From a phage: 64,000 nucleotides of DNA. A program made the translations under genes and the position numbers. The DNA lies in assembly GCA_024572335.1 (NCBI GenBank), contig GCA_024572335.1_3052.1. One strand, written 5' to 3'. Shown in pieces: positions 459-63,522 of the stretch; position 1 is the stretch's first letter, and each line of letters opens with the position of its first letter. The notes below the pieces were generated by a model that saw only the letters and a program-made list of their open reading frames with translations, was not told the DNA's origin and did not search any database.

Positions 459-932
459 TTAAGCTTTACGAGGAGAAGCATAACGAGTGATTTCAGATTC
501 TTCAACAACCCGGAAGTCACCTAAGAATACGATATTGTAGAGCTTTTCACCATCTTCAACCCATTGGTCTGTGATGAAGCCACACATCCTATCAGTTTTA
601 CTTGGACCAGCGAAATCATCAATATAATCGAATTCTTCATCAGTTACAAATTCAACGCCTTTACACAACGCCCATTTAAATTGTGCATTAGACTCAGTGG
701 ATTCAACTTCTTCAACAGAAGCAAAATGAGAGCTAACACGAGTTTCCAGAAATTTAGGACTTACGTAAGCGTACTGAGTTTCAGTTTTTCCAGAACTAGG
801 AATGATTCGAACTTTAACTTCTATAACACGACCAGTACCATTAGTACGAAGTCCTACCACTTCAACTAGACGACCTGCAGCTTTAGAACGAGATGCAGAC
901 GATACACGCTTAATTTCACCGATAGTAATCAT
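459..932 (-). CDS. Hypothetical early protein; paralog trio member 2
   Basis: 157 aa ATG ORF; C-terminal ITDQWVEDGEKLYNIVFLGDF; N-terminal SASRSKAAGRLVEV resembles member 1. Confidence 0.6.
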   Translation of the reverse strand: MITIGEIKRVSSASRSKAAGRLVEVVGLRTNGTGRVIEVKVRIIPSSGKTETQYAYVSPKFLETRVSSHFASVEEVESTESNAQFKWALCKGVEFVTDEEFDYIDDFAGPSKTDRMCGFITDQWVEDGEKLYNIVFLGDFRVVEESEITRYASPRKA

Positions 933-1004
933 AATTTTTCTCTCTTTGTTGTTAAGATTTATTCTCCATGAGAGCCATTATAACAGGCTCTCTATAAAGT
1001 AAAC

Positions 1005-1511: not shown

Positions 1512-2024
1512 TTAATCTAAGGTAATAAAGCCTTTTAATTCGGCGTGTGATTTGCGGAACATTACTTGATGTCCGCCAATGATAACTTGGTCATCTGGAA
1601 CTTCATAAATCGCAATGTACATTCCACGTTCTTTTAAGTCTTCACGCTCTTCTCGAGTGAACCATCTCATCATATCATATTCACTAGCGAAAGCAAAATG
1701 ATATAATGCAATAAACCACAATGGAATATAATTTTCAATTCGTGAATAATCTTTATTCCATTTAGTTTTAATAACATCATTAGCATTTTCAACTAATAAC
1801 TTATCATCGTGTGGAATAGGAATACTTTCATGGCTTTCATAATTATCGCTATGATGATGAAATGACGATGAATTAATACCGCAAAATTTTAGCCAAGTTC
1901 GAGTTTTCATAGAATCAAATCCACGATAAGGAGTTGATTGAACGCATAACTCTTGCCTAATTTTCATTATACCACTATCATCATTTAATGCGCTAAACGA
2001 TGATTCAACACGATAAATTTTCAT
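1512..2024 (-). CDS. Hypothetical protein
   Basis: Track ORF 1512..2063 begins at TTG inside a promoter; internal ATG at 2024 (MKIYRV) follows SD GAGGA. Confidence 0.5.
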   Translation of the reverse strand: MKIYRVESSFSALNDDSGIMKIRQELCVQSTPYRGFDSMKTRTWLKFCGINSSSFHHHSDNYESHESIPIPHDDKLLVENANDVIKTKWNKDYSRIENYIPLWFIALYHFAFASEYDMMRWFTREEREDLKERGMYIAIYEVPDDQVIIGGHQVMFRKSHAELKGFITLD

Positions 2025-2050
2025 TTTATTATCCTCAGTAGCTATGGTGT

Positions 2051-2081
2051 TATAATACCACAACTAACCGAGGAAGTAAAC
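2051..2081 (-). promoter_or_regulatory. Early-type promoter
   Basis: Minus strand GTTTAC, 18 nt, TATTAT; followed by SD GAGGA and ATG 2024. Confidence 0.5.
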
Positions 2082-5996: not shown

Positions 5997-6599
5997 TTAT
6001 AGATTAAATCCTTCAAAATCAAGAGTATAGATAGTGTATGTTGAATACTTTTTATACTCATATCTATCTGCAATTCTAAATACACTTCCAGCTGGTATCA
6101 TTACTTCTTGTTCATCTGAAACTAATTCCATATTACGATAACGATGGCTATCCGGAAACTTAAAGTTTGGATTGTATTCTTTACAGCGTAGAGCTTTTAT
6201 AGCATACTCCTGGAAATTGAATACCATAGGAGCTTTGAATTCAAAAATAACTTGTGTGTTATACTCTAAACCAGAAGCAAAATGTAGAGCTATATTTTTA
6301 TCATATGAAGCTGATACGACTTTATCAAATGTAATAATATCAATTCCTTGATTTAACACCTGCTTAGTCTCGACTGGAACACCTCTCCAAAGAGGTTTAT
6401 CGTTTGGAACCAAACGAGATTTGATTATTTCATTTAACCAAGTATGGTCATCTGGTTTGTTGGTAATACAATGAATTAAAAGTTCAATTTCAGATAAATT
6501 AAACCCTTCAGAAAGTAATTCTTCACGAATAGAAGCACGCACCGATGCATCCATTGATTTTATTTTAAAATCTTTTAGTTGCATTACTGAGTATTTCAT
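5997..6599 (-). CDS. modA: ADP-ribosyltransferase ModA
   Basis: 200 aa; R (LWRG), S-x-S (VSASY) and E-x-E (DEQEVMIP) ART motifs; size and position as T4 ModA. Confidence 0.75.
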   Translation of the reverse strand: MKYSVMQLKDFKIKSMDASVRASIREELLSEGFNLSEIELLIHCITNKPDDHTWLNEIIKSRLVPNDKPLWRGVPVETKQVLNQGIDIITFDKVVSASYDKNIALHFASGLEYNTQVIFEFKAPMVFNFQEYAIKALRCKEYNPNFKFPDSHRYRNMELVSDEQEVMIPAGSVFRIADRYEYKKYSTYTIYTLDFEGFNL

Positions 6600-7219
6600 T
6601 CAACTACCTCAATATCATAAACTTTAAATGTTCCAAACGAATCGTGTAATTTTTCTTTTGAAATAGAAGTTATTTTATACTTTCCAATTGGAATCATCCA
6701 TTCTTGTTCACACACAATCATCATTAAGTTATCAGTTCTTTCTGAATCTAACCCGTCAGTATCTTCATACGTGTACTTAAACTCAGTATTAGGAGAAGAA
6801 AGTATAATATCGCTGATATGGTCAGAATAATTAAAAGCTTTATCAGTTTTTAAGCGAAAAATTATTTCAGTGAAATACTCAAAATAAGAAAAACCACATG
6901 CTGTGTGCAAACTAGTAGTAAATGAATCTACCCTGTTCGTTGAAAACACTTCTCCAACTTGTAAATCTTTAATAAGTTCTTCTGTTGATTTTGATATACC
7001 ACGATATAACTGATAAGGTGATTTAGTTAAATGCTTTTTAATGATTTTATTCAACTGCCGATGAAGAGCTTCATTCTTTTTGGCTTCCATACATTGCCAA
7101 AGAACAGACTGCTCAAAATCAGTAAATTTTTCACAGACCTTTTTATACATATCATATTGAAAATCAACGCTTTCAGCTTTTATAGATAACTGTTCAACAT
7201 CTGCAAGATTAATAATCAT
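6596..7219 (-). CDS. modB: ADP-ribosyltransferase ModB
   Basis: 207 aa; R (LYRG), S-T-x-S (FSTNRVDSFTTS), E-x-E (CEQEWMIP); strong SD GGAGG. Confidence 0.75.
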   Translation of the reverse strand: MIINLADVEQLSIKAESVDFQYDMYKKVCEKFTDFEQSVLWQCMEAKKNEALHRQLNKIIKKHLTKSPYQLYRGISKSTEELIKDLQVGEVFSTNRVDSFTTSLHTACGFSYFEYFTEIIFRLKTDKAFNYSDHISDIILSSPNTEFKYTYEDTDGLDSERTDNLMMIVCEQEWMIPIGKYKITSISKEKLHDSFGTFKVYDIEVVE

Positions 7220-10330: not shown

Positions 10331-11670
<1,340 letters not shown>

Positions 11671-11695
11671 TATATCATCCTCAGCAATTTATTTT

Positions 11696-11725
11696 ATAAT
11701 ACCATAACAAGCTGAGAAAGTAAAC
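11696..11725 (-). promoter_or_regulatory. Early promoter upstream of the 186-aa ORF and dam
   Basis: GTTTAC, 18 nt, GTATTATA; SD GAGGA. Confidence 0.55.
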
Positions 11726-16791: not shown

Positions 16792-17965
16792 TAAATTCTT
16801 CCATACCACTTAACTGCTCGAGGTCAGTTTCTAAATCAGCAGCTGATTTACTTTTACTTTCTGGAGATTTAAATTTTTCAACCTTTGAGTTAATCAATTC
16901 ATCAACTTCAGCTTCAACAATTTCATTACTATCAATAGCACCTAACTGATAAGCACGTTTAATAGCATCTCGGAATGGTTGATGCTTAAATAAAGGACCC
17001 CAGAATGTAGTGCAGTTGGTATCTTTTGCACGCCAAGATTTTTCTTCGCGAATCATCTCGCCGGTTTCTTCGTCAAGAAATTCACGCGCATACCAGCCAT
17101 TTTTAGGTTTTACTACAAATCCTAATTCTAGAGCCATATCTAACAATCCAGAATAAGGATCGATACCACCGTCAAATTTAACATCAATAAAGAATTTACT
17201 TTTTTCTTTAACGGTACGAGATTTTTCTACATTTAGAACAAATTGATATCCCTGAAGATCAGAACCATCTTTAATCTGACGTTTACCGATAATGAATACA
17301 GTATCAGCCGAATACATTACGCCTGTACCGCCTGTCATCACGGTTTTACTAAACATTTCAATTGTTTCAATTGTATGGTTAACCGCAACACATGGAATAT
17401 TTTTAATGCTAAAGTAAGGAGTAACAATACGGAATAATGACTTCAGTGATTTAGCACGAGTCATATCTGCCACAGATTTTTCATTCAAGGCATCTTCCGT
17501 TTCTTTCTTAGAAGCCATATTACCAATTGAGTCGATGAATACAATAACCTTTTCACCACGCTCAATAGCTTCAAGCTGGTTCACCATATCAATTTTCAGC
17601 TGTTCAACTGACTGGATTGGTGTATGAATTACTCGTTCCGGGTCAACTCCCATAGATCGCAAATAAGCTGGAGTGATACCAAATTCGCTATCATAGAATA
17701 GACAAACCGCGTCAGGATATTTGTTCAAATATGCCGCAACCATAGTCAAAGACATATTTGATTTAAAGTGTTTAGAAGGCCCTGCGAAAATAGTTAAACC
17801 AGACTGCATGCCGCCATCAATCGCACCAGAAATAGCAATATTAAGCATTGGGATTTTTGTACGGATTACATCCTTTTCATTAAAGAATTTAGATGTAGTC
17901 AGTTCAGCAGTCATTTTAGAAGTTGAAGCTTTAATCAAACGGGATTTTAAATCTGCAATAGACAT
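16784..17965 (-). CDS. uvsX: Recombinase UvsX (RecA/Rad51 family)
   Basis: 393 aa; Walker A GPSKHFKS; highly similar but not identical to recalled T4 UvsX. Confidence 0.9.
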   Translation of the reverse strand: MSIADLKSRLIKASTSKMTAELTTSKFFNEKDVIRTKIPMLNIAISGAIDGGMQSGLTIFAGPSKHFKSNMSLTMVAAYLNKYPDAVCLFYDSEFGITPAYLRSMGVDPERVIHTPIQSVEQLKIDMVNQLEAIERGEKVIVFIDSIGNMASKKETEDALNEKSVADMTRAKSLKSLFRIVTPYFSIKNIPCVAVNHTIETIEMFSKTVMTGGTGVMYSADTVFIIGKRQIKDGSDLQGYQFVLNVEKSRTVKEKSKFFIDVKFDGGIDPYSGLLDMALELGFVVKPKNGWYAREFLDEETGEMIREEKSWRAKDTNCTTFWGPLFKHQPFRDAIKRAYQLGAIDSNEIVEAEVDELINSKVEKFKSPESKSKSAADLETDLEQLSGMEEFNE

Positions 17966-18042
17966 TCATTTTTTCCATAGGCATCATTATATTTTCCTCA
18001 CTGGTTAAAGATAGAGTAATTATAACACAATAAATTTAGGCA

Positions 18043-18885
18043 TTAATCAACTGCTATCGGATGAATAGCATTAAACTTATGAAATGCTTCTGATTTTTCT
18101 TTGCGCGAAACACACATGCGAAGAACCTTTAATGGCTCGTCTTCTTCACCCAACGATTTTCGTTTTTCAATATTAGAAGTTTTCCAACGAGCTTGCTCTG
18201 GAAACTCTCTATTGATTTGCTCAAGCGCTCTATTATGTTTAGAATTACTACGAATTGAACTGCACCCGCCAGGAGCTTGTGCTTTTCCAGATACAACCAG
18301 ATATTTGAACAAGGCCAAATGCGGATAACCTTGATTAATTAAATTGAGAAATGCATACATATCTTCGCACAAATCAATTTTTCCATACCCAATTTGTTCT
18401 GTAGTAAGTTTTCCGAGGTCATACCATGTATTCGTGAATCCATATGAATTTTCACGATAATTACCCCAAGATGAAGTAATTTTAAAAATAGGTAGACGAG
18501 CATGACCGTGATAATACCCACAATCCATGGCATCTTCGACGTATTGAATCAATTCATAGAACTGTTCACGGGTTAATTGATTGACTTTATCCACACAACG
18601 ACGGTCATCTCTTTTTCGCATTGAACTCATACGAATAGTAGTATCATCGTCAATCATCCAGATTCGTTGACCTGCATACATATCAGTAATTGCTTTACGA
18701 GTACCGGCAATTCCGTTTACATCATCAGGAATAGTTATAATTTTAGCTCTAGACCCATAGGCATCATAATAAGCTTTTTCTTCATGTTCACGCACTACAA
18801 TATGGGGTTCATAATCAGTCGGAAACATATCAAGGGCAGAAACTGCCCCGACACGCTGATAACTTGGAATTACGAATTGAATCAT
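18043..18885 (-). CDS. GT-A fold glycosyltransferase at the beta-gt locus (not T4 Bgt)
   Basis: About 280 aa; GT2-like N-terminus FVIPSYQR and DxD-type motif IWMIDDDTTI; sits between uvsX and gene 42 where T4 has bgt. Confidence 0.6.
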   Translation of the reverse strand: MIQFVIPSYQRVGAVSALDMFPTDYEPHIVVREHEEKAYYDAYGSRAKIITIPDDVNGIAGTRKAITDMYAGQRIWMIDDDTTIRMSSMRKRDDRRCVDKVNQLTREQFYELIQYVEDAMDCGYYHGHARLPIFKITSSWGNYRENSYGFTNTWYDLGKLTTEQIGYGKIDLCEDMYAFLNLINQGYPHLALFKYLVVSGKAQAPGGCSSIRSNSKHNRALEQINREFPEQARWKTSNIEKRKSLGEEDEPLKVLRMCVSRKEKSEAFHKFNAIHPIAVD

Positions 18886-19622
18886 TTCCACTCACCTTTA
18901 TAGTCTTTTTTCACAATATGAGTTTCGCCAGTATTCCACCAATGATCAACCAAGTAAAAATGACGAGAATATACATGAAGACTTCCGACATTCCATATAA
19001 TAGAACCTGCTTTATACTGACGAGTTGAATCGCCGGCATTCAAATCAGATACTAATTTATCTAATACGTATTTTTGCCATGCATAATCATTACGGAATCC
19101 GAAGACCACGTCATTTGAGCGCATGCTTACTACTGCATTGACTTTCTTATCACGAATCAGGTACTGTACTGTATTAGTACACATGAAATCTGACATACCA
19201 TCTTTATTGTAGTCAAATTGCATGGATGGACGAGTATAAATCATAATACCACGTCGAGAATCAGGGTTTTGACCAAGTTCAGCTAAACACATATCATACT
19301 GGGCGTAGTTATCTTCTGACCAAATAGCCCAACCGTAATTCGAATTAATTTCGCCTTTAGAAGATGCGACCTGCTGCCAAATCTTTGGTGTTTCACCTGG
19401 AATATCTTTAACAAACAAGCTCTTAGATTTATACCATTCAAGTTCACGCTGAATGTATTCATCATTAAGAGCGCCAAAAATAAACGGTTCATCTGCTACA
19501 AATGATGTGCCAATAATTTCAATAGTTTTAACACCAGTTTTATCAACTACGAAATCTTTTTCTTTTAATGCAAGCCCCAAATGAAGACGGATTTCTTCAA
19601 CTGTCATAGAGTCACTAATCAT
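18882..19622 (-). CDS. 42: dCMP hydroxymethylase gp42
   Basis: 246 aa, size and position as T4 gp42; thymidylate-synthase-like fold. Confidence 0.85.
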   Translation of the reverse strand: MISDSMTVEEIRLHLGLALKEKDFVVDKTGVKTIEIIGTSFVADEPFIFGALNDEYIQRELEWYKSKSLFVKDIPGETPKIWQQVASSKGEINSNYGWAIWSEDNYAQYDMCLAELGQNPDSRRGIMIYTRPSMQFDYNKDGMSDFMCTNTVQYLIRDKKVNAVVSMRSNDVVFGFRNDYAWQKYVLDKLVSDLNAGDSTRQYKAGSIIWNVGSLHVYSRHFYLVDHWWNTGETHIVKKDYKGEWK

Positions 19623-20034: not shown

Positions 20035-20415
20035 TCACTTAGTCAAATTTTTTACACATGAATTATAAGAATTCACTACATACTCCATCGGAGCATTTTT
20101 ACCAGTACGCCATTGGTAATTATTAGCCCAATTAGCCCAAAGCTCGGCGCAGTAGTTTTCAATTTTTTCTTCGCGTGTAATTACATCAGAATTACGATAT
20201 GCTTGAGCAGATTCATCTGGACGAATAGCTTCGTCAAAATTCGCCTGCATTTGTTCGACTGTTTGATTTGGAGCTTCTTTATAACACTTGACATTAGGAT
20301 TATAAAATTTGCTTGAACAGTTTACAATTTTTCCTACATCAGACTGATTTACTACCGGTCCTTGAGCCACACAACCAGTAAGACCTAATGCAATAACCAA
20401 AATAGCGATTTTCAT
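20035..20415 (-). CDS. Lipoprotein (imm.1 position)
   Basis: Track has TTG start; ATG at 20415; lipobox LTGC after signal peptide MKIAILVIALG; SD GGAGA. Confidence 0.55.
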   Translation of the reverse strand: MKIAILVIALGLTGCVAQGPVVNQSDVGKIVNCSSKFYNPNVKCYKEAPNQTVEQMQANFDEAIRPDESAQAYRNSDVITREEKIENYCAELWANWANNYQWRTGKNAPMEYVVNSYNSCVKNLTK

Positions 20416-20450
20416 TTCATTCTCCAAATCCGTATCAGTAGTTGATATTG

Positions 20451-20483
20451 ATATAGTACCATGGAAGAACAGTCTTGTAAACA
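20451..20483 (-). promoter_or_regulatory. Early promoter of a repeated promoter-leader cassette
   Basis: A/T-rich UP-like run, GTTTAC, GGTACTATAT -10, then conserved leader with SD GGAGA. Confidence 0.55.
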
Positions 20484-20570
20484 GTTTTGTGAAAAAATTT
20501 TTAATGAATTCTAAAGGTCCAGAATCATCTGTTTTTCATAAGTATAGATTTATATTACTTGTATGAAAAA

Positions 20571-20586
20571 GGGACCCGGAGGTCCC
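20571..20586 (-). terminator. Intrinsic terminator after gene 43
   Basis: GGGACC-UCCG-GGUCCC hairpin followed by U5 on the minus transcript. Confidence 0.75.
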
Positions 20587-20599
20587 TAGATTTATTCTA

Positions 20600-44594: not shown

Positions 44595-45122
44595 TTATGC
44601 GAGTACCGTCTTTAACCGTTCTTCAAACTTCCGAAGAGTATTTTGGCGTTCAGCTCTTTGCTTTTTGTAAGTTTCAATACGCTCTGAAATGAGAGTGTAT
44701 CGCTCATTTACTGATTCTTTCATAAAATCAGGAATTTCACGAGAAGCTTTAATCTCGTCAAATTTATCAATAACAGCTTGCTCTTCAGCAATTAAGTTAT
44801 CATACATTAAAATATCTTTCTTGATAAACTCAATATCTTCTTGAGTTACACGAGATAATTTAGATGCTTTATCCTTTTTGTACTGTTCGTTAGTATCACG
44901 AGACCAGTGTAATGTACGATTTTTATTCGTGTTCTTGTAAATTTCTACAATACCAATCTCATCGATAATAACGATCCAATTCCAACGGGATTTGTAAATT
45001 TGTCCTCCATCAACAGTGATTTCACCACCGATTGAGACATCATTAAAGAACTTGCTTTGAGCTTCAGATTTAAATTTACCATCGTTATAATTTATCAGGT
45101 TGAAAATATCTTTAGCGTTCAT
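44595..45122 (-). CDS. Hypothetical protein with helical C-terminus
   Basis: 175 aa; strong SD GGAGG; own early promoter. Confidence 0.5.
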   Translation of the reverse strand: MNAKDIFNLINYNDGKFKSEAQSKFFNDVSIGGEITVDGGQIYKSRWNWIVIIDEIGIVEIYKNTNKNRTLHWSRDTNEQYKKDKASKLSRVTQEDIEFIKKDILMYDNLIAEEQAVIDKFDEIKASREIPDFMKESVNERYTLISERIETYKKQRAERQNTLRKFEERLKTVLA

Positions 45123-45146
45123 TTTTGTTCCTCCGTAGTTGATAGT

Positions 45147-45179
45147 TGCATAGTACCACAGAGGAACGGTCTTGTAAAC
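45147..45179 (-). promoter_or_regulatory. Early promoter
   Basis: GTTTAC, 17 nt, GGTACTATG; SD GGAGG. Confidence 0.5.
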
Positions 45180-45181
45180 AA

Positions 45182-45484
45182 CTAAAAGAAACTTCTTTCA
45201 CAATTTTTTCCACTGAACCAAGCGCTCACTGCTTTCTTAGTCTCAGGAGCAGTGTTATCCATAAACCATTCAAAGGCAGCCTTTTTATGATTCTGGAGGG
45301 CTTCTCGGGCTTTAATCTGCTCACGGTCTATTAACACTAACATATGAGCCTTTCTTGTCACCAAAGGCTTCTTATGATTTTTTGAATACTCCCAATCATT
45401 TGTCCAACGCATTGTCGTTGCGAACTGATGAACCGCGTCTTTAATTTTAGTTTCATAAATTTCACGAGCTTTTGAGTATAACAT
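45182..45484 (-). CDS. Hypothetical protein
   Basis: Track ORF 45182..45496; ATG at 45484 follows SD GGAGG. Confidence 0.4.
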   Translation of the reverse strand: MLYSKAREIYETKIKDAVHQFATTMRWTNDWEYSKNHKKPLVTRKAHMLVLIDREQIKAREALQNHKKAAFEWFMDNTAPETKKAVSAWFSGKNCERSFF

Positions 45485-45585: not shown

Positions 45586-46554
45586 TTATTTCAGAAGAGT
45601 AACCTCAGCGATTTCTTCCCAACCGTTTTTGTCGGTCATAATAAAGTCAGCAAGATAAAGCGCAGTACGCAGTGAAACATTGCGTAAACGATTAACATTG
45701 ACTTTCATCCATGATAATGCTTTATAAGTTTCTTCATCAGAAAGACCGCGCTTTTGCATCATGTCAGTTGAAAGAATAACATCTTCAACCCTGACCATAA
45801 TTTCTTCATTAGTGTGAACACCCAAATCCAAATAAACTGAGCGGGACACTAATGCTTGTAAATGCGGAGCAAGTTTAGTACCACGGTCTAATTCGCGGTC
45901 AATGTCAACGTTTGTGATAAAAACAATCGTTCCTTTAAATTCAAACTCACGCTCAATGCCTTTTTCTTCTAAGTAAGAAGATGTGGTGCTCCAGCAGACT
46001 TTACGGGTCTCTCCAGTGTCCAGAGCAGCTTTCAGAAGATTAAGAATGTCCATATCAGAGAAAACATCCACATCATCAATCAAAAGGACAGAATTCTCTT
46101 CACGATTATTCCAAAGCTGTTCATAAAGACCAATACCAGAGATTTTACCATTAATGCTTTTATATTCAATGTATCCAATATCATTTGCTTTATTTAAAGC
46201 TTTATCTAAAGAATACGTTTTACCAATACCCGCCGCACCAGAGATAATTAATGAACGAATGTTTCCGTTAATAATACCATTCGTCATCATTCCCATAACA
46301 TTAAATCTTTTATTAATGCGGGTTTTCATATCTTCATACGATTCTTTAACTTCTTCAACTTTTACACCATCATATGAAATGTCTGATTTATAAACCCAAA
46401 CACCGCGACGTTTACCGTCAATTTCAACAAAAACTTTACCATCTCCTTGTGCATCTACCGGAGCATTATCTGGGAACCATTCGCCTAAGAGCTCAAAAGT
46501 TCCAGAGATTTCTTTACCGAAGTAGATACCCTTATTGATAGTTACAGTTTTCAT
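45586..46554 (-). CDS. AAA+/P-loop ATPase
   Basis: Walker A GAAGIGKT, Walker B VLLIDDVD, sensor-1-like TIVFITN; ATG at 46554 with SD GGAGA (track start is TTG). Confidence 0.6.
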   Translation of the reverse strand: MKTVTINKGIYFGKEISGTFELLGEWFPDNAPVDAQGDGKVFVEIDGKRRGVWVYKSDISYDGVKVEEVKESYEDMKTRINKRFNVMGMMTNGIINGNIRSLIISGAAGIGKTYSLDKALNKANDIGYIEYKSINGKISGIGLYEQLWNNREENSVLLIDDVDVFSDMDILNLLKAALDTGETRKVCWSTTSSYLEEKGIEREFEFKGTIVFITNVDIDRELDRGTKLAPHLQALVSRSVYLDLGVHTNEEIMVRVEDVILSTDMMQKRGLSDEETYKALSWMKVNVNRLRNVSLRTALYLADFIMTDKNGWEEIAEVTLLK

Positions 46555-46586
46555 TTTATTCTCCAAATCCGTATCAGTTGATAGTT

Positions 46587-46618
46587 GTATAGTACCATAA
46601 AGCTTTATGCTTGTAAAC
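46587..46618 (-). promoter_or_regulatory. Early promoter of the repeated promoter-leader cassette, upstream of the AAA+ ATPase
   Basis: GTTTAC, 17 nt, GGTACTATAC; conserved leader and SD GGAGA. Confidence 0.55.
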
Positions 46619-46648
46619 CGTTTTGTGAAAAATTTTTGAAATAAAAAA

Positions 46649-46666
46649 GGGAGCCCGAAGGCTCCC
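46649..46666 (-). terminator. Intrinsic terminator after the nucleotidyltransferase-like gene
   Basis: GGGAGCC-UUCG-GGCUCCC followed by U6. Confidence 0.8.
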
Positions 46667-46668
46667 TA

Positions 46669-47682: not shown

Positions 47683-48140
47683 TCAGCCTTATATTCAATA
47701 ACAGGACATACTTTAGCTTTACGAGCTTTTAAAAATTCAACGATAATCGATTTCTTGGGTTGAATAGGAGGTAAACCTTTATTTTTCCTATCAATGTTTT
47801 CTACGTGTAAAGCATAATCCTTTTTCCATTTATAATCTTTATATTTTTCACGCAAATGTGCAGGAATAACAAATGAACCGATAATAAGTAAAACAACCAA
47901 AAGCGCAAGTATAAATGCCGATGGAAGAAGAGCCCATAAACTACCGAAAATAAGCCAACGTTGTAGGCTTTCTGCACAAATAATTGTTAACCCTACGAGT
48001 ATAGCACACCCAAAAATAGAAACGAAAAATGTAGGTATGGCAATAGACCAAAAATATGCGCATAGTGTCTTAGGTCGTTGCCATTCATCGTTAAACAATT
48101 TGAATAATTTATAGTGCCAAGAGTTTTCATTAATAATCAT
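47679..48140 (-). CDS. Membrane protein, translationally coupled to the nucleotidyltransferase-like gene
   Basis: 153 aa; 2-3 predicted TM helices; stop overlaps downstream start. Confidence 0.5.
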   Translation of the reverse strand: MIINENSWHYKLFKLFNDEWQRPKTLCAYFWSIAIPTFFVSIFGCAILVGLTIICAESLQRWLIFGSLWALLPSAFILALLVVLLIIGSFVIPAHLREKYKDYKWKKDYALHVENIDRKNKGLPPIQPKKSIIVEFLKARKAKVCPVIEYKAE

Positions 48141-48142
48141 AA

Positions 48143-48664
48143 TTATCCTTTCATTGAAGGCGTAACGGTTGTTAAATACTTAATCATAGCTTCAGCTTCT
48201 GATTTTGATAGTGAAATTTCTTCACCGTTTTGGCGAATAGAAACAAAATCTGGATGACGATCACCACCAGCTTTTAAAACACACATATAAGTATCAGCTT
48301 CGCCTTCAATATTTGAAATGATTGAAGCAGTTCCACACGAATGTGGTTTTTGATAAATCAATACAGCTTTTCTTCCACCATTTGACTGTTCATAGGCTTT
48401 TAATACATCAAACAAATCAGTTCTTTTATCAATAGCTAAAATGTTATTTTCATCTTCAATGTTAAATCCTTCGGATACTTCATAAAGCGTTACCCATAAA
48501 TCGCCAATATCAATAACAGCATTTACTTTTCCACGGCTTTCAAGAGTATGACAAATTTTCTTGATTTCGTCATAACTCATTTTAATAATATCATCTCCTT
48601 GACTAAGAAAGATGTCATTTTTAAATTCAACACGAATTAAACCACTTCCACTTGAAATAAACAT
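48143..48664 (-). CDS. Hypothetical protein (paralog pair member)
   Basis: 173 aa; C-terminal EAEAMIKYLTTVTPSM resembles next ORF. Confidence 0.45.
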   Translation of the reverse strand: MFISSGSGLIRVEFKNDIFLSQGDDIIKMSYDEIKKICHTLESRGKVNAVIDIGDLWVTLYEVSEGFNIEDENNILAIDKRTDLFDVLKAYEQSNGGRKAVLIYQKPHSCGTASIISNIEGEADTYMCVLKAGGDRHPDFVSIRQNGEEISLSKSEAEAMIKYLTTVTPSMKG

Positions 48665-49959: not shown

Positions 49960-50147
49960 TATTCCACCACATATGACAGAGAGAATATTGCACACGCCAT
50001 GTGAGTTGCAACTTCATCACACATATTATAACGTTTCTTAAGAAGTTCTACAAGTTCTTCACTAGTAACTTCATCCATGTCGACGAAAAAATCACCATTA
50101 ATGATGACGTAGATATTTCCTTCTTGATTGAGCGCTTCAATTTTCAT
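49959..50147 (-). CDS. Hypothetical small protein
   Basis: Track start TTG at 50192 lies in a promoter; ATG at 50147 follows SD GAGGAG. Confidence 0.35.
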
Positions 50148-50174
50148 GATGTTCTCCTCTTTATCTAATAGTTG

Positions 50175-50205
50175 TATAGTATCACAGCTCAAACGGAAAG
50201 TAAAC
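50175..50205 (-). promoter_or_regulatory. Early promoter
   Basis: GTTTAC, 17 nt, GATACTATAC; directly downstream of a terminator. Confidence 0.5.
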
Positions 50206-50221
50206 CGGTAAAATGAAAAAA

Positions 50222-50237
50222 GTCTCCCGAAGGAGAC
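50222..50237 (-). terminator. Intrinsic terminator
   Basis: GUCUCC-UUCG-GGAGAC followed by U6. Confidence 0.8.
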
Positions 50238-50242
50238 TAATG

Positions 50243-53879: not shown

Positions 53880-54341
53880 TCATTGAGTTTTAATTACTGC
53901 TTTAGAAGCCTTTCCTGGTAAACGACGACTGTTGATAATTGCCATCCTACATTGAAGTGACGGGTCTTTGAACTTCGCATTAGGTTTACAAACTGTAAAT
54001 CCAAGCCAAAGATTTCCATTTGTGATTTCTAAACGTCCAGGACGGTATTCAACCCCATCAATAAAATCCTCGTCAATGTCAGGACGCGGAGGCATACTCA
54101 GGAATTCATTAACTTCTAAAACATGGTCTTTTATTTTATGGAATAATTCAAAAACGTATGTCTCATCAATCTCCCGTTGAATTGCACGATCAAGAAGATG
54201 TTGAGAATATTTTAGATGAAACGATGAGACTCCTTCTGCTTTTGATGCTTCACGAATCTCATTGTTAATTTGACGAAACTCCGACTCAAAGTGACGACGA
54301 AGCTTATTTCGACGGATAAAAACTTCTGTATTGATAGTCAT
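53880..54341 (-). CDS. regB: Endoribonuclease RegB
   Basis: 153 aa as T4 RegB; position between tk-side ORFs and the lysozyme side; own early promoter and SD GGAG. Confidence 0.55.
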   Translation of the reverse strand: MTINTEVFIRRNKLRRHFESEFRQINNEIREASKAEGVSSFHLKYSQHLLDRAIQREIDETYVFELFHKIKDHVLEVNEFLSMPPRPDIDEDFIDGVEYRPGRLEITNGNLWLGFTVCKPNAKFKDPSLQCRMAIINSRRLPGKASKAVIKTQ

Positions 54342-54369
54342 GTTATTCTCCTCTTAACTGATAGAAAAA

Positions 54370-54398
54370 TTATACCACAGTCAAGAGGAAAAGTAAAC
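54370..54398 (-). promoter_or_regulatory. Early promoter upstream of regB
   Basis: GTTTAC, 17 nt, tgGTATAAT; SD GGAG. Confidence 0.55.
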
Positions 54399-56535: not shown

Positions 56536-57009
56536 TTATTTGAACGATTTAACGTACTGAATAGAACCCTTACTATTCACAAAGGCAATTTTACCATTTT
56601 TATTATACATGGTAGCAGTACGCTGATAACCATAGGTTTGTTTACCAGATTGATAACCAACTAATGCAAAATTATCTTCACCCATTTTATTCTGTTTAGC
56701 GCGAATGCGTTCATGACCATGTGCCATAAGAACCTTAGCATCACCAGTTGCAATGGATCGACGAGTTTTTTCATCTTCAACTGCATTAACAAAGTCGTCA
56801 AATGAATCAAATTTAGCATGAGATTTATTATACAATTTTCCATCTACTGCATAATTATATCCCTGTACATCCATCTCAACTTCTGTACCATCATCCAATA
56901 CAGCAGTAATTTTTTGACCTTTTTTAAATTTCAAAAGATCAGTAAAAGATTCAGCAATAATTTGAGAATTAATAGCTGCTTCAGTGATAAATTCTTGATA
57001 TGTTTTCAT
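56536..57009 (-). CDS. Internal protein (IP) with capsid targeting sequence
   Basis: 157 aa; N-terminal MKTYQEFITEA matches the T4 IP capsid-targeting decapeptide; located just downstream of e as T4 ipIII/ipII. Confidence 0.6.
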   Translation of the reverse strand: MKTYQEFITEAAINSQIIAESFTDLLKFKKGQKITAVLDDGTEVEMDVQGYNYAVDGKLYNKSHAKFDSFDDFVNAVEDEKTRRSIATGDAKVLMAHGHERIRAKQNKMGEDNFALVGYQSGKQTYGYQRTATMYNKNGKIAFVNSKGSIQYVKSFK

Positions 57010-60960: not shown

Positions 60961-61224
60961 TTATTTCATATTATTGAAATATTCTTCAGCAATTTCATCA
61001 TTATCATGATAAACTTTAGAAGACAGTTTAACATAACTTTCAGCAGTGAACATGTTAATCACAACCTTTACAGTATACCACTGACCATCTTCATTACCCA
61101 TTACTGCGTAAGTTTCAAACAACGGATGATCAGGACCGATAACTTTAATATCATTCACTGTACGACCGAAATCTTCTGAAACACATTTCATAAAGAAGTT
61201 GAACAGTTCGCCGTAATTATCCAT
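60961..61224 (-). CDS. Hypothetical small protein
   Basis: Track start TTG at 61287 lies in a promoter; ATG at 61224 follows SD GGAGA. Confidence 0.4.
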   Translation of the reverse strand: MDNYGELFNFFMKCVSEDFGRTVNDIKVIGPDHPLFETYAVMGNEDGQWYTVKVVINMFTAESYVKLSSKVYHDNDEIAEEYFNNMK

Positions 61225-61265
61225 TTCGTTCTCCAAGTTGTTTTCTGTATCAGTAGTTGATAGTT

Positions 61266-61297
61266 GTATAGTACCATGGAAGGACAAGGATGTAAAC
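61266..61297 (-). promoter_or_regulatory. Early promoter of the repeated promoter-leader cassette
   Basis: GTTTAC, 17 nt, GGTACTATAC; conserved leader and SD GGAGA. Confidence 0.55.
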
Positions 61298-61327
61298 CGT
61301 TTTGTGAAAAAATTTTTAAAAAGTTTT

Positions 61328-61458: not shown

Positions 61459-61465
61459 AAGAATG

Positions 61466-61939
61466 TTATTTGATTTGTTTAGCAGACCAAATGCGGTCTT
61501 TAATAATTTTTTGGATGTCTTCAACATACTCAAGAGAGTGAGCATGTGGGTTATCTTTGAAACTATAAGCACGAGCTAACTTTTGACCTTCAGTTTTGAT
61601 TACTAAAAGCTCTTTAAGGATAGCTTCATATTTGGAGATAATTCCTTTAACAATATTTTTCTCTTGTGCGACTTTAGGATCTGCTTTAGGAGCAGGTTTA
61701 CCCGAAGCCTTTGCAAAAGCAGCGCCAGTAGCAACTAAACTTTTCCAGGCCATACTAACTGCATTTCCCGTAAATCCTTCTGCTTTCATGTCGCGAGCAA
61801 ATTGGAATCGTGATTCATCAGAAGCATCTTTATAGGAATATTTACCCGCTGCAATGGCTGCTTTTGCGACAGCTTGAATTTCGGTGCTAGACGCTTCATT
61901 TAACACCGCTTCATTTAAAAATTGAGTATATGATTTCAT
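61466..61939 (-). CDS. Internal-protein-like gene with capsid-targeting-like N-terminus
   Basis: 157 aa; N-terminal MKSYTQFLNEA; late promoter TATAAATA upstream; flanked by duplicated terminator hairpins. Confidence 0.5.
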   Translation of the reverse strand: MKSYTQFLNEAVLNEASSTEIQAVAKAAIAAGKYSYKDASDESRFQFARDMKAEGFTGNAVSMAWKSLVATGAAFAKASGKPAPKADPKVAQEKNIVKGIISKYEAILKELLVIKTEGQKLARAYSFKDNPHAHSLEYVEDIQKIIKDRIWSAKQIK

Positions 61940-61975
61940 CTTATTTCCTGTTTTAATTTGTAGATTTAATATACT

Positions 61976-61983
61976 TATTTATA
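61976..61983 (-). promoter_or_regulatory. Late promoter upstream of the IP-like gene
   Basis: TATAAATA on minus strand about 35 nt upstream of ATG 61939. Confidence 0.55.
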
Positions 61984-62693: not shown

Positions 62694-62770
<77 letters not shown>

Positions 62771-62777
62771 TATTTTG

Positions 62778-62849
62778 CGGACGTGATAGGATTCGAACCT
62801 ATAACCAATCGCTTAACAGGCGATCGCTCTGCCATTGAGCTACACATCC
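62778..62849 (-). tRNA. tRNA-Asn (anticodon GUU)
   Basis: Acceptor GGATGTG/CACGTCC, D-stem GCTC/GAGC, anticodon stem ATCGC/GCGAT, loop CTGTTAA, T-loop TTCGAAT; CCA not encoded. Confidence 0.8.
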
Positions 62850-62853
62850 AAAT

Positions 62854-62940
62854 TGGTGGGGAGTGGTGGAGTCGAACCACCCGAGTCGCAATGACAATGA
62901 ATTTACAGTCCACACCGCTACCTCTACGGGATAACTCCCC
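62854..62940 (-). tRNA. tRNA-Tyr (anticodon GUA), long variable arm
   Basis: Acceptor GGGGAGT/ACTCCCC, anticodon loop CTGTAAA, variable arm TGTCATTGCGACTCG similar to E. coli tRNA-Tyr; CCA encoded. Confidence 0.75.
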
Positions 62941-62949
62941 AAATTAATT

Positions 62950-63024
62950 TGGTGGCCCTGGGTGGAATTGAACCACCATCTGGCGATTATGAGTCGCTTG
63001 CTTGAACCTTCCAGCTACAGGGCC
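62950..63024 (-). tRNA. tRNA-Ile (anticodon CAU, lysidine-type as in T4) or Met
   Basis: Acceptor GGCCCTG/CAGGGCC, anticodon loop CTCATAA, T-arm GGTGG-TTCAATT-CCACC; CCA encoded. Confidence 0.75.
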
Positions 63025-63025
63025 T

Positions 63026-63101
63026 TGGTGCTGATTAACGGAATCGAACCGCCGACCTTCTCATTACAAGTGAGTTGCTCTACCTACTGAGCTAAATCAG
63101 C
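63026..63101 (-). tRNA. tRNA-Thr (anticodon UGU)
   Basis: Acceptor GCTGATT, D-stem GCTC/GAGC, anticodon loop CTTGTAA, T-loop TTCGATT; CCA encoded. Confidence 0.85.
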
Positions 63102-63106
63102 AAAAC

Positions 63107-63196
63107 TGGCGGAGGCGATAGGATTTGAACCTATGAGTCGCCGGAGCGACTGCCGGTTTTCAAGACCGGTGCATTAAACCACTCTGCCACGCCTCC
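63107..63196 (-). tRNA. tRNA-Ser (anticodon UGA), long variable arm
   Basis: Acceptor GGAGGCG, anticodon stem CCGGT/ACCGG, loop CTTGAAA, long variable arm; CCA encoded. Confidence 0.85.
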
Positions 63197-63198
63197 AG

Positions 63199-63272
63199 TC
63201 TCCATACAAGGATTTGAACCTTGGACCTCCTGATCCCAAATCAGGCGCTCTACCAAACTGAGCTACACGGAG
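63199..63272 (-). tRNA. tRNA-Pro (anticodon UGG)
   Basis: Acceptor CTCCGTG, anticodon stem CCTGA/TCAGG, loop TTTGGGA, T-loop TTCAAAT; CCA not encoded. Confidence 0.85.
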
Positions 63273-63282
63273 TAAATTAAAT

Positions 63283-63356
<74 letters not shown>

Positions 63357-63361
63357 AAATT

Positions 63362-63448
63362 TGGTGCGAGAAGTGGGACTCGAACCCACAAGGAAATCAT
63401 TCCGCAGCATTTTAAGTGCTGTGCCTTTACCAATTTGACCATTCTCGC
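63362..63448 (-). tRNA. tRNA-Leu (anticodon UAA), long variable arm
   Basis: Acceptor GCGAGAA, anticodon stem CAGCA/TGCTG, loop CTTAAAA, long variable arm, T-loop TTCGAGT; CCA encoded. Confidence 0.85.
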
Positions 63449-63449
63449 G

Positions 63450-63522
63450 CTGGGAATAAAGGACTCGAACCTTTGCATCCTGGAATCAAAATCCAGTGCC
63501 TTACCAACTTGGCTAATTCCCA
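63450..63522 (-). tRNA. tRNA-Gln (anticodon UUG)
   Basis: Acceptor TGGGAAT/ATTCCCA, anticodon stem CTGGA/TCCAG, loop TTTTGAT; CCA not encoded; separated from tRNA-Leu by 1 nt. Confidence 0.85.

Follow-up and report, generated by a model that had tools for sequence, protein, structure and literature searches.

A recurrent early-promoter and leader cassette in a T4-like phage, with candidate RegB/S1 sites at the start codon

The early promoters of phage T4 are composed of UP, -35, TGn and -10 elements plus additional consensus regions (PMC2988021), and the family consists of very strong early promoters. In T4 and PST, a unit made of promoter, SD and ATG recurs before unrelated genes (PMC4122927, PMC2839356). 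The PeSL described in the same two phages contains an AT-rich region, a stem-loop, TTTACW-N17-TAYWAT, an SD and an ATG, and is associated with gene swaps (PMC4122927); mini-circles formed between PeSLs have been demonstrated experimentally in RB49/phi1 (PMC2839356). The target of RegB and ribosomal protein S1 has been experimentally defined as 11 nt of single-stranded RNA, GGAGRAYARAA, with the optimum GGAGAAUAAAA. The cut falls in the middle of GGAG, and the sequence 5' of it need not be a specific one (PMC1702504, PMC3014915). Finally, T4 e, soc, 49 and I-TevI carry translation-initiation hairpins in combination with late promoters (PMC3014915).

Anatomy and placement of the repeated unit

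The 64-kb stretch of DNA analysed here (the window) belongs to the early region of a Tequatrovirus, a T4-like phage, and every gene in it lies on the minus strand. It is collinear with T4 from approximately 6.6 to 70.7 kb and shows ~98-99% identity to many T4-like phages; its gene 43 is 99% identical to that of Shigella phage ESh32. T4-type early promoter sites are found about 17 times on the minus strand versus two weak sites on the plus strand. A preliminary description of this DNA had pointed to a nearly identical unit at three intervals and to close variants at two more, and the unit is indeed present at all five, read on the minus strand. Three main copies are located upstream of imm.1, nrdC.10 and e.8, and two variants upstream of nrdC.8 and mobD.5. 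The order of elements is an A/T-rich UP, GTTTAC, a 17-nt gap, TGGTACTAT, a leader of 30-40 nt, GGAG, an A-rich tract and the ATG.

20413..20506, minus strand: cassette 1, before imm.1, TTTACA-17-TACTAT with TG; UP 20483..20506, -35 GTTTAC 20477..20482, TGGTACTAT 20453..20461, probable +1 20446, RegB/S1-like site GGAGAATGAAA 20415..20425 (one mismatch to GGAGRAYARAA), ATG 20413..20415
20570..20587, minus strand: terminator-like stem-loop behind gene 43, ~88 nt upstream of the cassette 1 -35
46552..46642, minus strand: cassette 2, before nrdC.10, TTTACA-17-TACTAT with TG; UP 46619..46642, -35 46613..46618, TGGTACTAT 46589..46597, probable +1 46582, perfect RegB/S1 consensus GGAGAATAAAA 46554..46564, ATG 46552..46554
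46648..46667, minus strand: intrinsic-terminator-like stem-loop AGGGAGCCTTCGGGCTCCCT plus T-run, abutting the cassette 2 UP, PeSL-type
61222..61321, minus strand: cassette 3, before e.8, TTTACA-17-TACTAT with TG; UP 61298..61321, -35 61292..61297, TGGTACTAT 61268..61276, probable +1 61261, RegB/S1-like site GGAGAACGAAA 61224..61234 (one mismatch), ATG 61222..61224
45120..45203, minus strand: variant cassette with a short leader, before nrdC.8; -35 45174..45179, TGGTACTAT 45150..45158, SD GGAGGAAC, ATG 45120..45122; spacer arm 45155..45167 complementary to leader/SD arm 45127..45139
50145..50238, minus strand: variant cassette before mobD.5; terminator-like stem-loop 50221..50238, -35 50200..50205, TGATACTAT 50176..50184, SD GAGGAGAACATC, ATG 50145..50147

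The last base of the -10 falls at 20453 (imm.1), 46589 (nrdC.10), 61268 (e.8), 45150 (nrdC.8) and 50176 (mobD.5), and the orthologous sites in T4 are 27051, 55355, 70667, 53914 and 58751, respectively. The genes behind the three main cassettes are unrelated (a DUF5481 protein, an AAA-like protein and a protein without a family). The imm.1 cassette is identical in ESh32, orthologous copies of the e.8 cassette are kept in Mosigvirus and Dhakavirus, and in phage fPS-90 a terminator is annotated at the place of the 20570..20587 stem-loop.

Similarity between the copies extends beyond the -35 and -10 hexamers: in an alignment, the UP and the discriminator plus leader are conserved as well. Among the three main copies, mean identity is 0.85 over the 24-nt UP (AAAAATTTTTTCACAAAAC, 19-21/24 identical), with the -35 matching at 6/6 positions and TGn plus -10 at 9/9. 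From the discriminator through the leader to the ATG it is ~0.72, or 0.74-0.83 when the imm.1 start codon is correctly placed, both figures allowing for a 3-nt ACT indel. Neither the 15-nt spacer between -35 and -10 (0.54) nor the start of the coding sequence (0.50 over 45 nt) rises above the background set by ten other early promoters of the window (UP 0.52, spacer 0.47, leader 0.58, coding sequence 0.51). The UP of the two variants is less similar, A/T-rich nonetheless. GTTTAC and the 17-nt gap (TTTACA-17-TACTAT) are exact in all five units, and the TG-extended -10 is TGGTACTAT in four of them and TGATACTAT in mobD.5. Two sites, 46587..46618 and 61266..61297, match the string GTTTAC-N15-19-GGTACTATAC exactly, and there are four occurrences of the 20-mer GGTACTATACAACTATCAAC with no more than three mismatches; in shuffled sequence neither is expected by chance (0 in both cases).

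The 30-nt leader that had been quoted for the unit is exact for the copy at 46561, but the copies at 20421 and 61231 differ from it. The former reads GGTACTATAT-CAATATCAACTACTGATAC, a clustered variant with an extra ACT, and the latter diverges after ~21 nt of leader, where a different middle, AGAAAACAACTT, and then GGAGAACGAAATG follow. The leader of the mobD.5 variant departs from the family after ACAACTAT.

Judged by sequence, the repeated units are T4-type early (Pe) promoters, an element already well described, and belong to a single paralogous subfamily. They share with T4 early promoters the same UP, the GTTTAC -35, the 17-nt gap, the TG-extended -10 and a minus-strand placement before early genes, and the T4 motA early promoter has GGTACTATACAACTATCAACTACTGATAC identical to the window copies. 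The one difference is the ATCAAT of the window imm.1 copy, a 3-base clustered variant that in T4 is found only at the motB-cef copy; otherwise there is none of substance. In T4, the 5' end of the mobD.5 promoter was detected by primer extension (PMC1702504). Host sigma-70 RNA polymerase would bind the UP, the -35 GTTTAC(A), the TG extension and the -10 TACTAT; recognition of these elements is established for T4 early promoters, and we infer it for the present copies. Following the published numbering, with T at -7 (PMC1524935), the discriminator is ACAACT and the mRNA leader AUCAACU(ACU)GAUACGGAUUUGGAGAAUAAAAUG, so that transcription would start ~7 nt past the -10 at the A of ATCAACT.

Very probably, then, the units are paralogous Pe promoter copies, each with a standard translation-initiation leader, that give an early burst of expression limited by RegB and owe their extended identity to constraint together with descent and exchange. 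Functional constraint would act on the UP, the -35, the TGn/-10 and the SD/RegB site, and the remainder would come from the shared ancestry of the copies and from homologous exchange that still goes on between them. The repeat is real and the preliminary interpretation of it was right in outline; T4 early promoters, RegB-sensitive initiation regions and PeSL cassettes were already known. What is gained for this phage is a set of exact coordinates, covering five early promoters together with probable start sites and candidate RegB sites. The finding also confirms that functional promoter/leader units can be recognized from raw sequence at a first pass; biologically it adds little.

As a separate observation, the nrdC.10 spacer contains a perfect 14-bp palindrome, CATAAAGCTTTATG, at 46599..46612 of the window. 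The palindrome is identical in the T4, ESh32 and IMG/VR copies and is also found at the T4 frd.3 promoter.

The candidate RegB/S1 site and the probable origin of the leader

At its 3' end, the leader agrees with GGAGRAYARAA over 11-13 nt (GGAGAAUAAAAUG and near variants). Just one position in the 64 kb of the window, the nrdC.10 site at 46554..46564, fits the consensus perfectly, and it corresponds exactly to the published optimum, while the imm.1 (20415..20425) and e.8 (61224..61234) sites each have one mismatch, a G at position 8. When one mismatch is allowed, the scan also recovers sites reported to be cleaved, namely the regB SD and two GGAU sites that were assigned to motB.2 and 55.2 by position; recovery of these three reported sites validates the scan. 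Each candidate site lies between an early promoter and a start codon and is predicted to be single-stranded in the primary transcript, with P(paired) of 0.08-0.20. As in known RegB/S1 targets, the SD of an early transcript supplies GGAG followed by an A-rich 7-mer, and regB itself is present in the same genome:

53880..54341, minus strand: regB (Pfam REGB_T4, E 5e-68)
54341..54351, minus strand: regB SD GGAGAATAACA, behind an early promoter at 54369

The two variants differ from such targets. In T4, the nrdC.8 transcript is only moderately cleaved by RegB and the mobD.5 transcript is insensitive, as reported in PMC1702504, and the poorer consensus match of both variants fits this moderate cleavage and resistance.

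The mechanism of RegB/S1 cleavage is established in T4, and for the present copies we infer it from the consensus match. The 30-40 nt leader, G-poor and unstructured, is predicted to keep the GGAG of the SD open so that translation could begin immediately after infection. As RegB accumulates, RegB with ribosomal protein S1 would cut GG^AG within the 11-nt GGAGAAUAAAA, and the cut would inactivate the mRNA and confine expression to an early burst. The regB product, a trans-acting endoribonuclease, is predicted to act in this way on the GGAG of cassettes 1-3.

T4 has eight sites that fit the RegB/S1 consensus perfectly, every one of them the identical 13-mer GGAGAATAAAATG, on the minus strand and at a start codon (positions 167029, 146014, 130263, 129863, 73524, 70633, 55330 and 6567), and five of the eight stand behind the leader core TATCAACT. 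Part of the published "optimal site" may reflect paralogy of the cassette as well as selection. That the optimal site GGAGAATAAAATG mostly travels with the TACTAT cassette subfamily may be of interest to T4 specialists.

The -10 together with the leader core is found at nine loci in T4, including the motA early promoter, and 539 phage records have the segment from -10 to ATG alone, at a total of 1814 places. Going by their names, these records appear to be almost all Tequatrovirus; a Dhakavirus and non-T4 phages such as Salmonella phage STML-198 carry one copy each. In T4, the leader start ATCAAC stands behind 12 of 15 promoters with TACTAT; of the 16 others, one has it (Fisher p = 3.9e-5). 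The same linkage is seen in the window (p = 0.017). Other -10 variants have downstream blocks of their own, for example TATAGT-AGTCTT. Given that ATCAAC is tied to TACTAT, the leader appears to belong to paralogous subfamilies inherited as blocks and not to be an element needed by every early gene. Judging by this linkage, -10 variant and leader are inherited together within T4 early promoter subfamilies, and the 5' part of the leader is probably best explained by common descent. The suggestion that the leader is a shared post-transcriptional control site fits its 3' end, which matches the RegB/S1 target, but is not supported for its 5' part, CAACTATCAACT(ACT)GATAC, which moves as a block with TACTAT, has no conserved structure and lies where RegB needs no specific sequence.

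Two other explanations for the shared leader were weighed against descent. According to one, the leader encodes a conserved RNA structure, be it a 5' stabilizing hairpin (AUCA-ACUAC-UGAU), a riboswitch or a protein-binding operator. A 4-bp hairpin is predicted in the imm.1 and e.8 leaders and begins exactly at the probable +1, but at -1.2 to -2.6 kcal/mol (z ~0) its MFE is small, and the primary leaders as a whole range from 0 to -2.6 kcal/mol, again with z ~0, and have P(SD paired) of 0.08-0.21. RNAalifold finds 0 consensus pairs across nine distinct leaders of the family, natural variants such as CAACTAATAC break the pairing, and an Rfam search with the leader matched no family. Given the near-zero MFE and the results from RNAalifold and Rfam, we rejected a conserved structure, and we consider it extremely improbable. 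According to the other, the discriminator and the first ~20 transcribed nt (ACAACT|ATCAACTACTGATAC) form a dedicated cis-element: a DNA or RNA site for a phage or host factor, as in S1/30S standby binding, RegA binding or the shut-off of early promoters, or else an initial transcribed sequence tuned for promoter escape. The segment is more conserved among paralogues than the neighbouring spacer and is nearly invariant over 37 copies from several phages, and 0-3 changes next to a diverged spacer could reflect selection and not descent alone. It is G-poor and predicted to be single-stranded. A review considers the shut-off of early promoters to be only partly explained (PMC3014915), and PMC2988021 describes additional, unexplained consensus regions in T4 early promoters. 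Nevertheless, the segment is tied to one -10 variant instead of being spread over all early promoters, and early promoters of the same class, among them those of regB and motB.2, are without it. RegB/S1 needs no specific 5' sequence (PMC1702504), and natural variants delete or alter parts of the segment (CAACTAATAC, the 3-nt ACT indel, ATCAAT). We regard such an element as unlikely, and the same low expectation applies to the narrower proposal that ACAACT|AUCAACUACUGAUAC, common to motA, imm.1, nrdC.10, e.8 and other immediate-early genes, is itself a cis-acting signal. If it were, the genes that share ACAACT|AUCAACUACUGAUAC might make up a regulon, be it for shutting off early promoters, for tuning promoter escape or for an S1/30S standby loading through which RegB is potentiated.

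Exchange between cassette copies

The proposal that the unit is a portable expression module agrees with the PeSL concept; segments have been exchanged between copies, and the downstream genes are unrelated. At the imm locus, the cassette has either its own spacer type or an e.8-type spacer depending on the phage, and the frd.3 locus has an nrdC.10-type spacer in T4 and an e.8-type spacer in ESh32. The imm.1 copies of the window and of ESh32 carry the clustered patch ATCAAT that is otherwise seen at the motB-cef copy. Across phages, no fewer than 12 different ORFs are preceded by the same cassette. A small additional ORF, joined at the common ATGAAAAT, separates the cassette from imm.1 in fPS-90 and many other phages, and at the imm and ndd loci genes have been replaced or inserted exactly at the cassette start codon. 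The table of mosaics also drew on a scan of IMG/VR with the leader core, which gave 20 loci on ~6 T4-like contigs, too few for population statistics. These mosaics support spread and homogenization of the cassettes by homologous recombination, for which an adaptive role is putative. Common descent with homologous exchange would place the same module before many unrelated ORFs, in the manner of a PeSL-type portable cassette.

Like PeSLs, the window units combine an AT-rich tract, an early promoter, an SD and an ATG before unrelated small ORFs, have a stem-loop nearby and include chimeric copies. They differ in that a stem-loop directly abuts the promoter in only two of the five, nrdC.10 (46648..46667) and mobD.5 (50221..50238); it overlaps the -10 in nrdC.8 and lies 88 nt upstream in imm.1 and ~140 nt upstream in e.8. 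A further difference is that an association with indels is not statistically visible in the window.

Under the PeSL hypothesis, homology would be kept since the cassettes serve as recombination linkers, with selection for gene insertion, deletion or swap, possibly by way of mini-circles. The mosaic units, the gene changes at the start codon of the imm and ndd cassettes, the stem-loops that abut two cassettes and the mini-circles shown between PeSLs in RB49/phi1 (PMC2839356) all speak for this. However, the 17 indel/replacement breakpoints between the window and T4 show no significant enrichment near cassettes when compared with random points (P 0.18-0.69), and for the seven relative to ESh32 the enrichment is marginal (P ~0.05). 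Moreover, all 45 records listed of 651 matches retain the interval that separates the neighbouring direct-repeat cassettes at 46589 and 45150. Exchange could also be a by-product of the active homologous recombination of T4 on any repeat of ~50-100 bp, in which case selection for exchange is not required. Maintenance of the cassettes as linkers is rather unlikely.

The extra ORF before imm.1 is ~78 aa long (MKIVMGCLAVCL...) and is found in most Tequatroviruses, with T4, ESh32 and the window being without it. In fPS-90 it spans 705..941 with the junction at ATGAAAAT, and it is also present in four IMG/VR loci.

The 17 indel/replacement differences between the window and T4 within 64 kb include window 61460..61981, 47683..48646, 17953..18900 and 56536..56978. 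Just upstream of the e.8 cassette, 520 bp of the window are missing from T4, and replacements relative to T4 are located near mobD, segA and ipII-ipIII. Several of the differences are homing-endonuclease genes of T4 or ESh32 that are missing from the window. Nine tRNA genes are clustered on the minus strand at window 62697..63522; the corresponding region of T4 has eight tRNAs and is interrupted by segB.

Hairpins between spacer and leader

Some of the strict T4 early promoters, about 12 of 29, have a -35/-10 spacer that is the reverse complement of the leader and SD of the same promoter, which places the -10 in the loop of a hairpin. Promoters of this kind are found in the window at 45127..45167 (nrdC.8), 54351..54398 (regB), 2024..2081 (motB.2) and 11670..11725, and in T4 at 62768, 65385, 166778, 136307, 123064, 8189 and 53914. 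Spacers form stronger duplexes with their own leaders than with those of other promoters (mean -8.7 versus -6.3 kcal/mol; p=5e-5 for T4 and 0.01 for the window by permutation). For nrdC.8, the read-through RNA is predicted to form a hairpin of -24.3 kcal/mol (z -4.84) in which the SD is fully paired, whereas the primary transcript is unstructured. With the SD paired in read-through RNA and open in promoter-initiated RNA, read-through transcripts would be translationally silent.

The arrangement at nrdC.8 and other short-leader early promoters, which lie inside a hairpin with the SD in its 3' arm, is similar to the translation-initiation hairpins of e, soc, 49 and I-TevI, in that only transcripts begun at the embedded promoter would have an open SD. 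However, the known cases use late promoters and the promoter embedded at nrdC.8 is early, and the three main cassettes are without the hairpin. The spacer-leader hairpin was rejected as the reason for the common leader, since the three main copies rank 13-29 of 29. Stem-loops overlapping the -10 in the PeSLs of RB49/phi1 have been interpreted as terminators. A second class of early promoter, embedded in SD-sequestering hairpins, may be of interest to T4 specialists.

One further copy of the cassette is located in the motB-cef intergenic region, at T4 6500..6606, immediately outside the window on its left side, and at ESh32 56714. Its -35 is degenerate, ATATAC, and all that it drives before cef is an ORF of 11 codons (MENSLKVLILF). 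The spacer ATCAGTAGTTGAT and the leader ATCAACTACTGAT of this copy are perfect reverse complements of each other.
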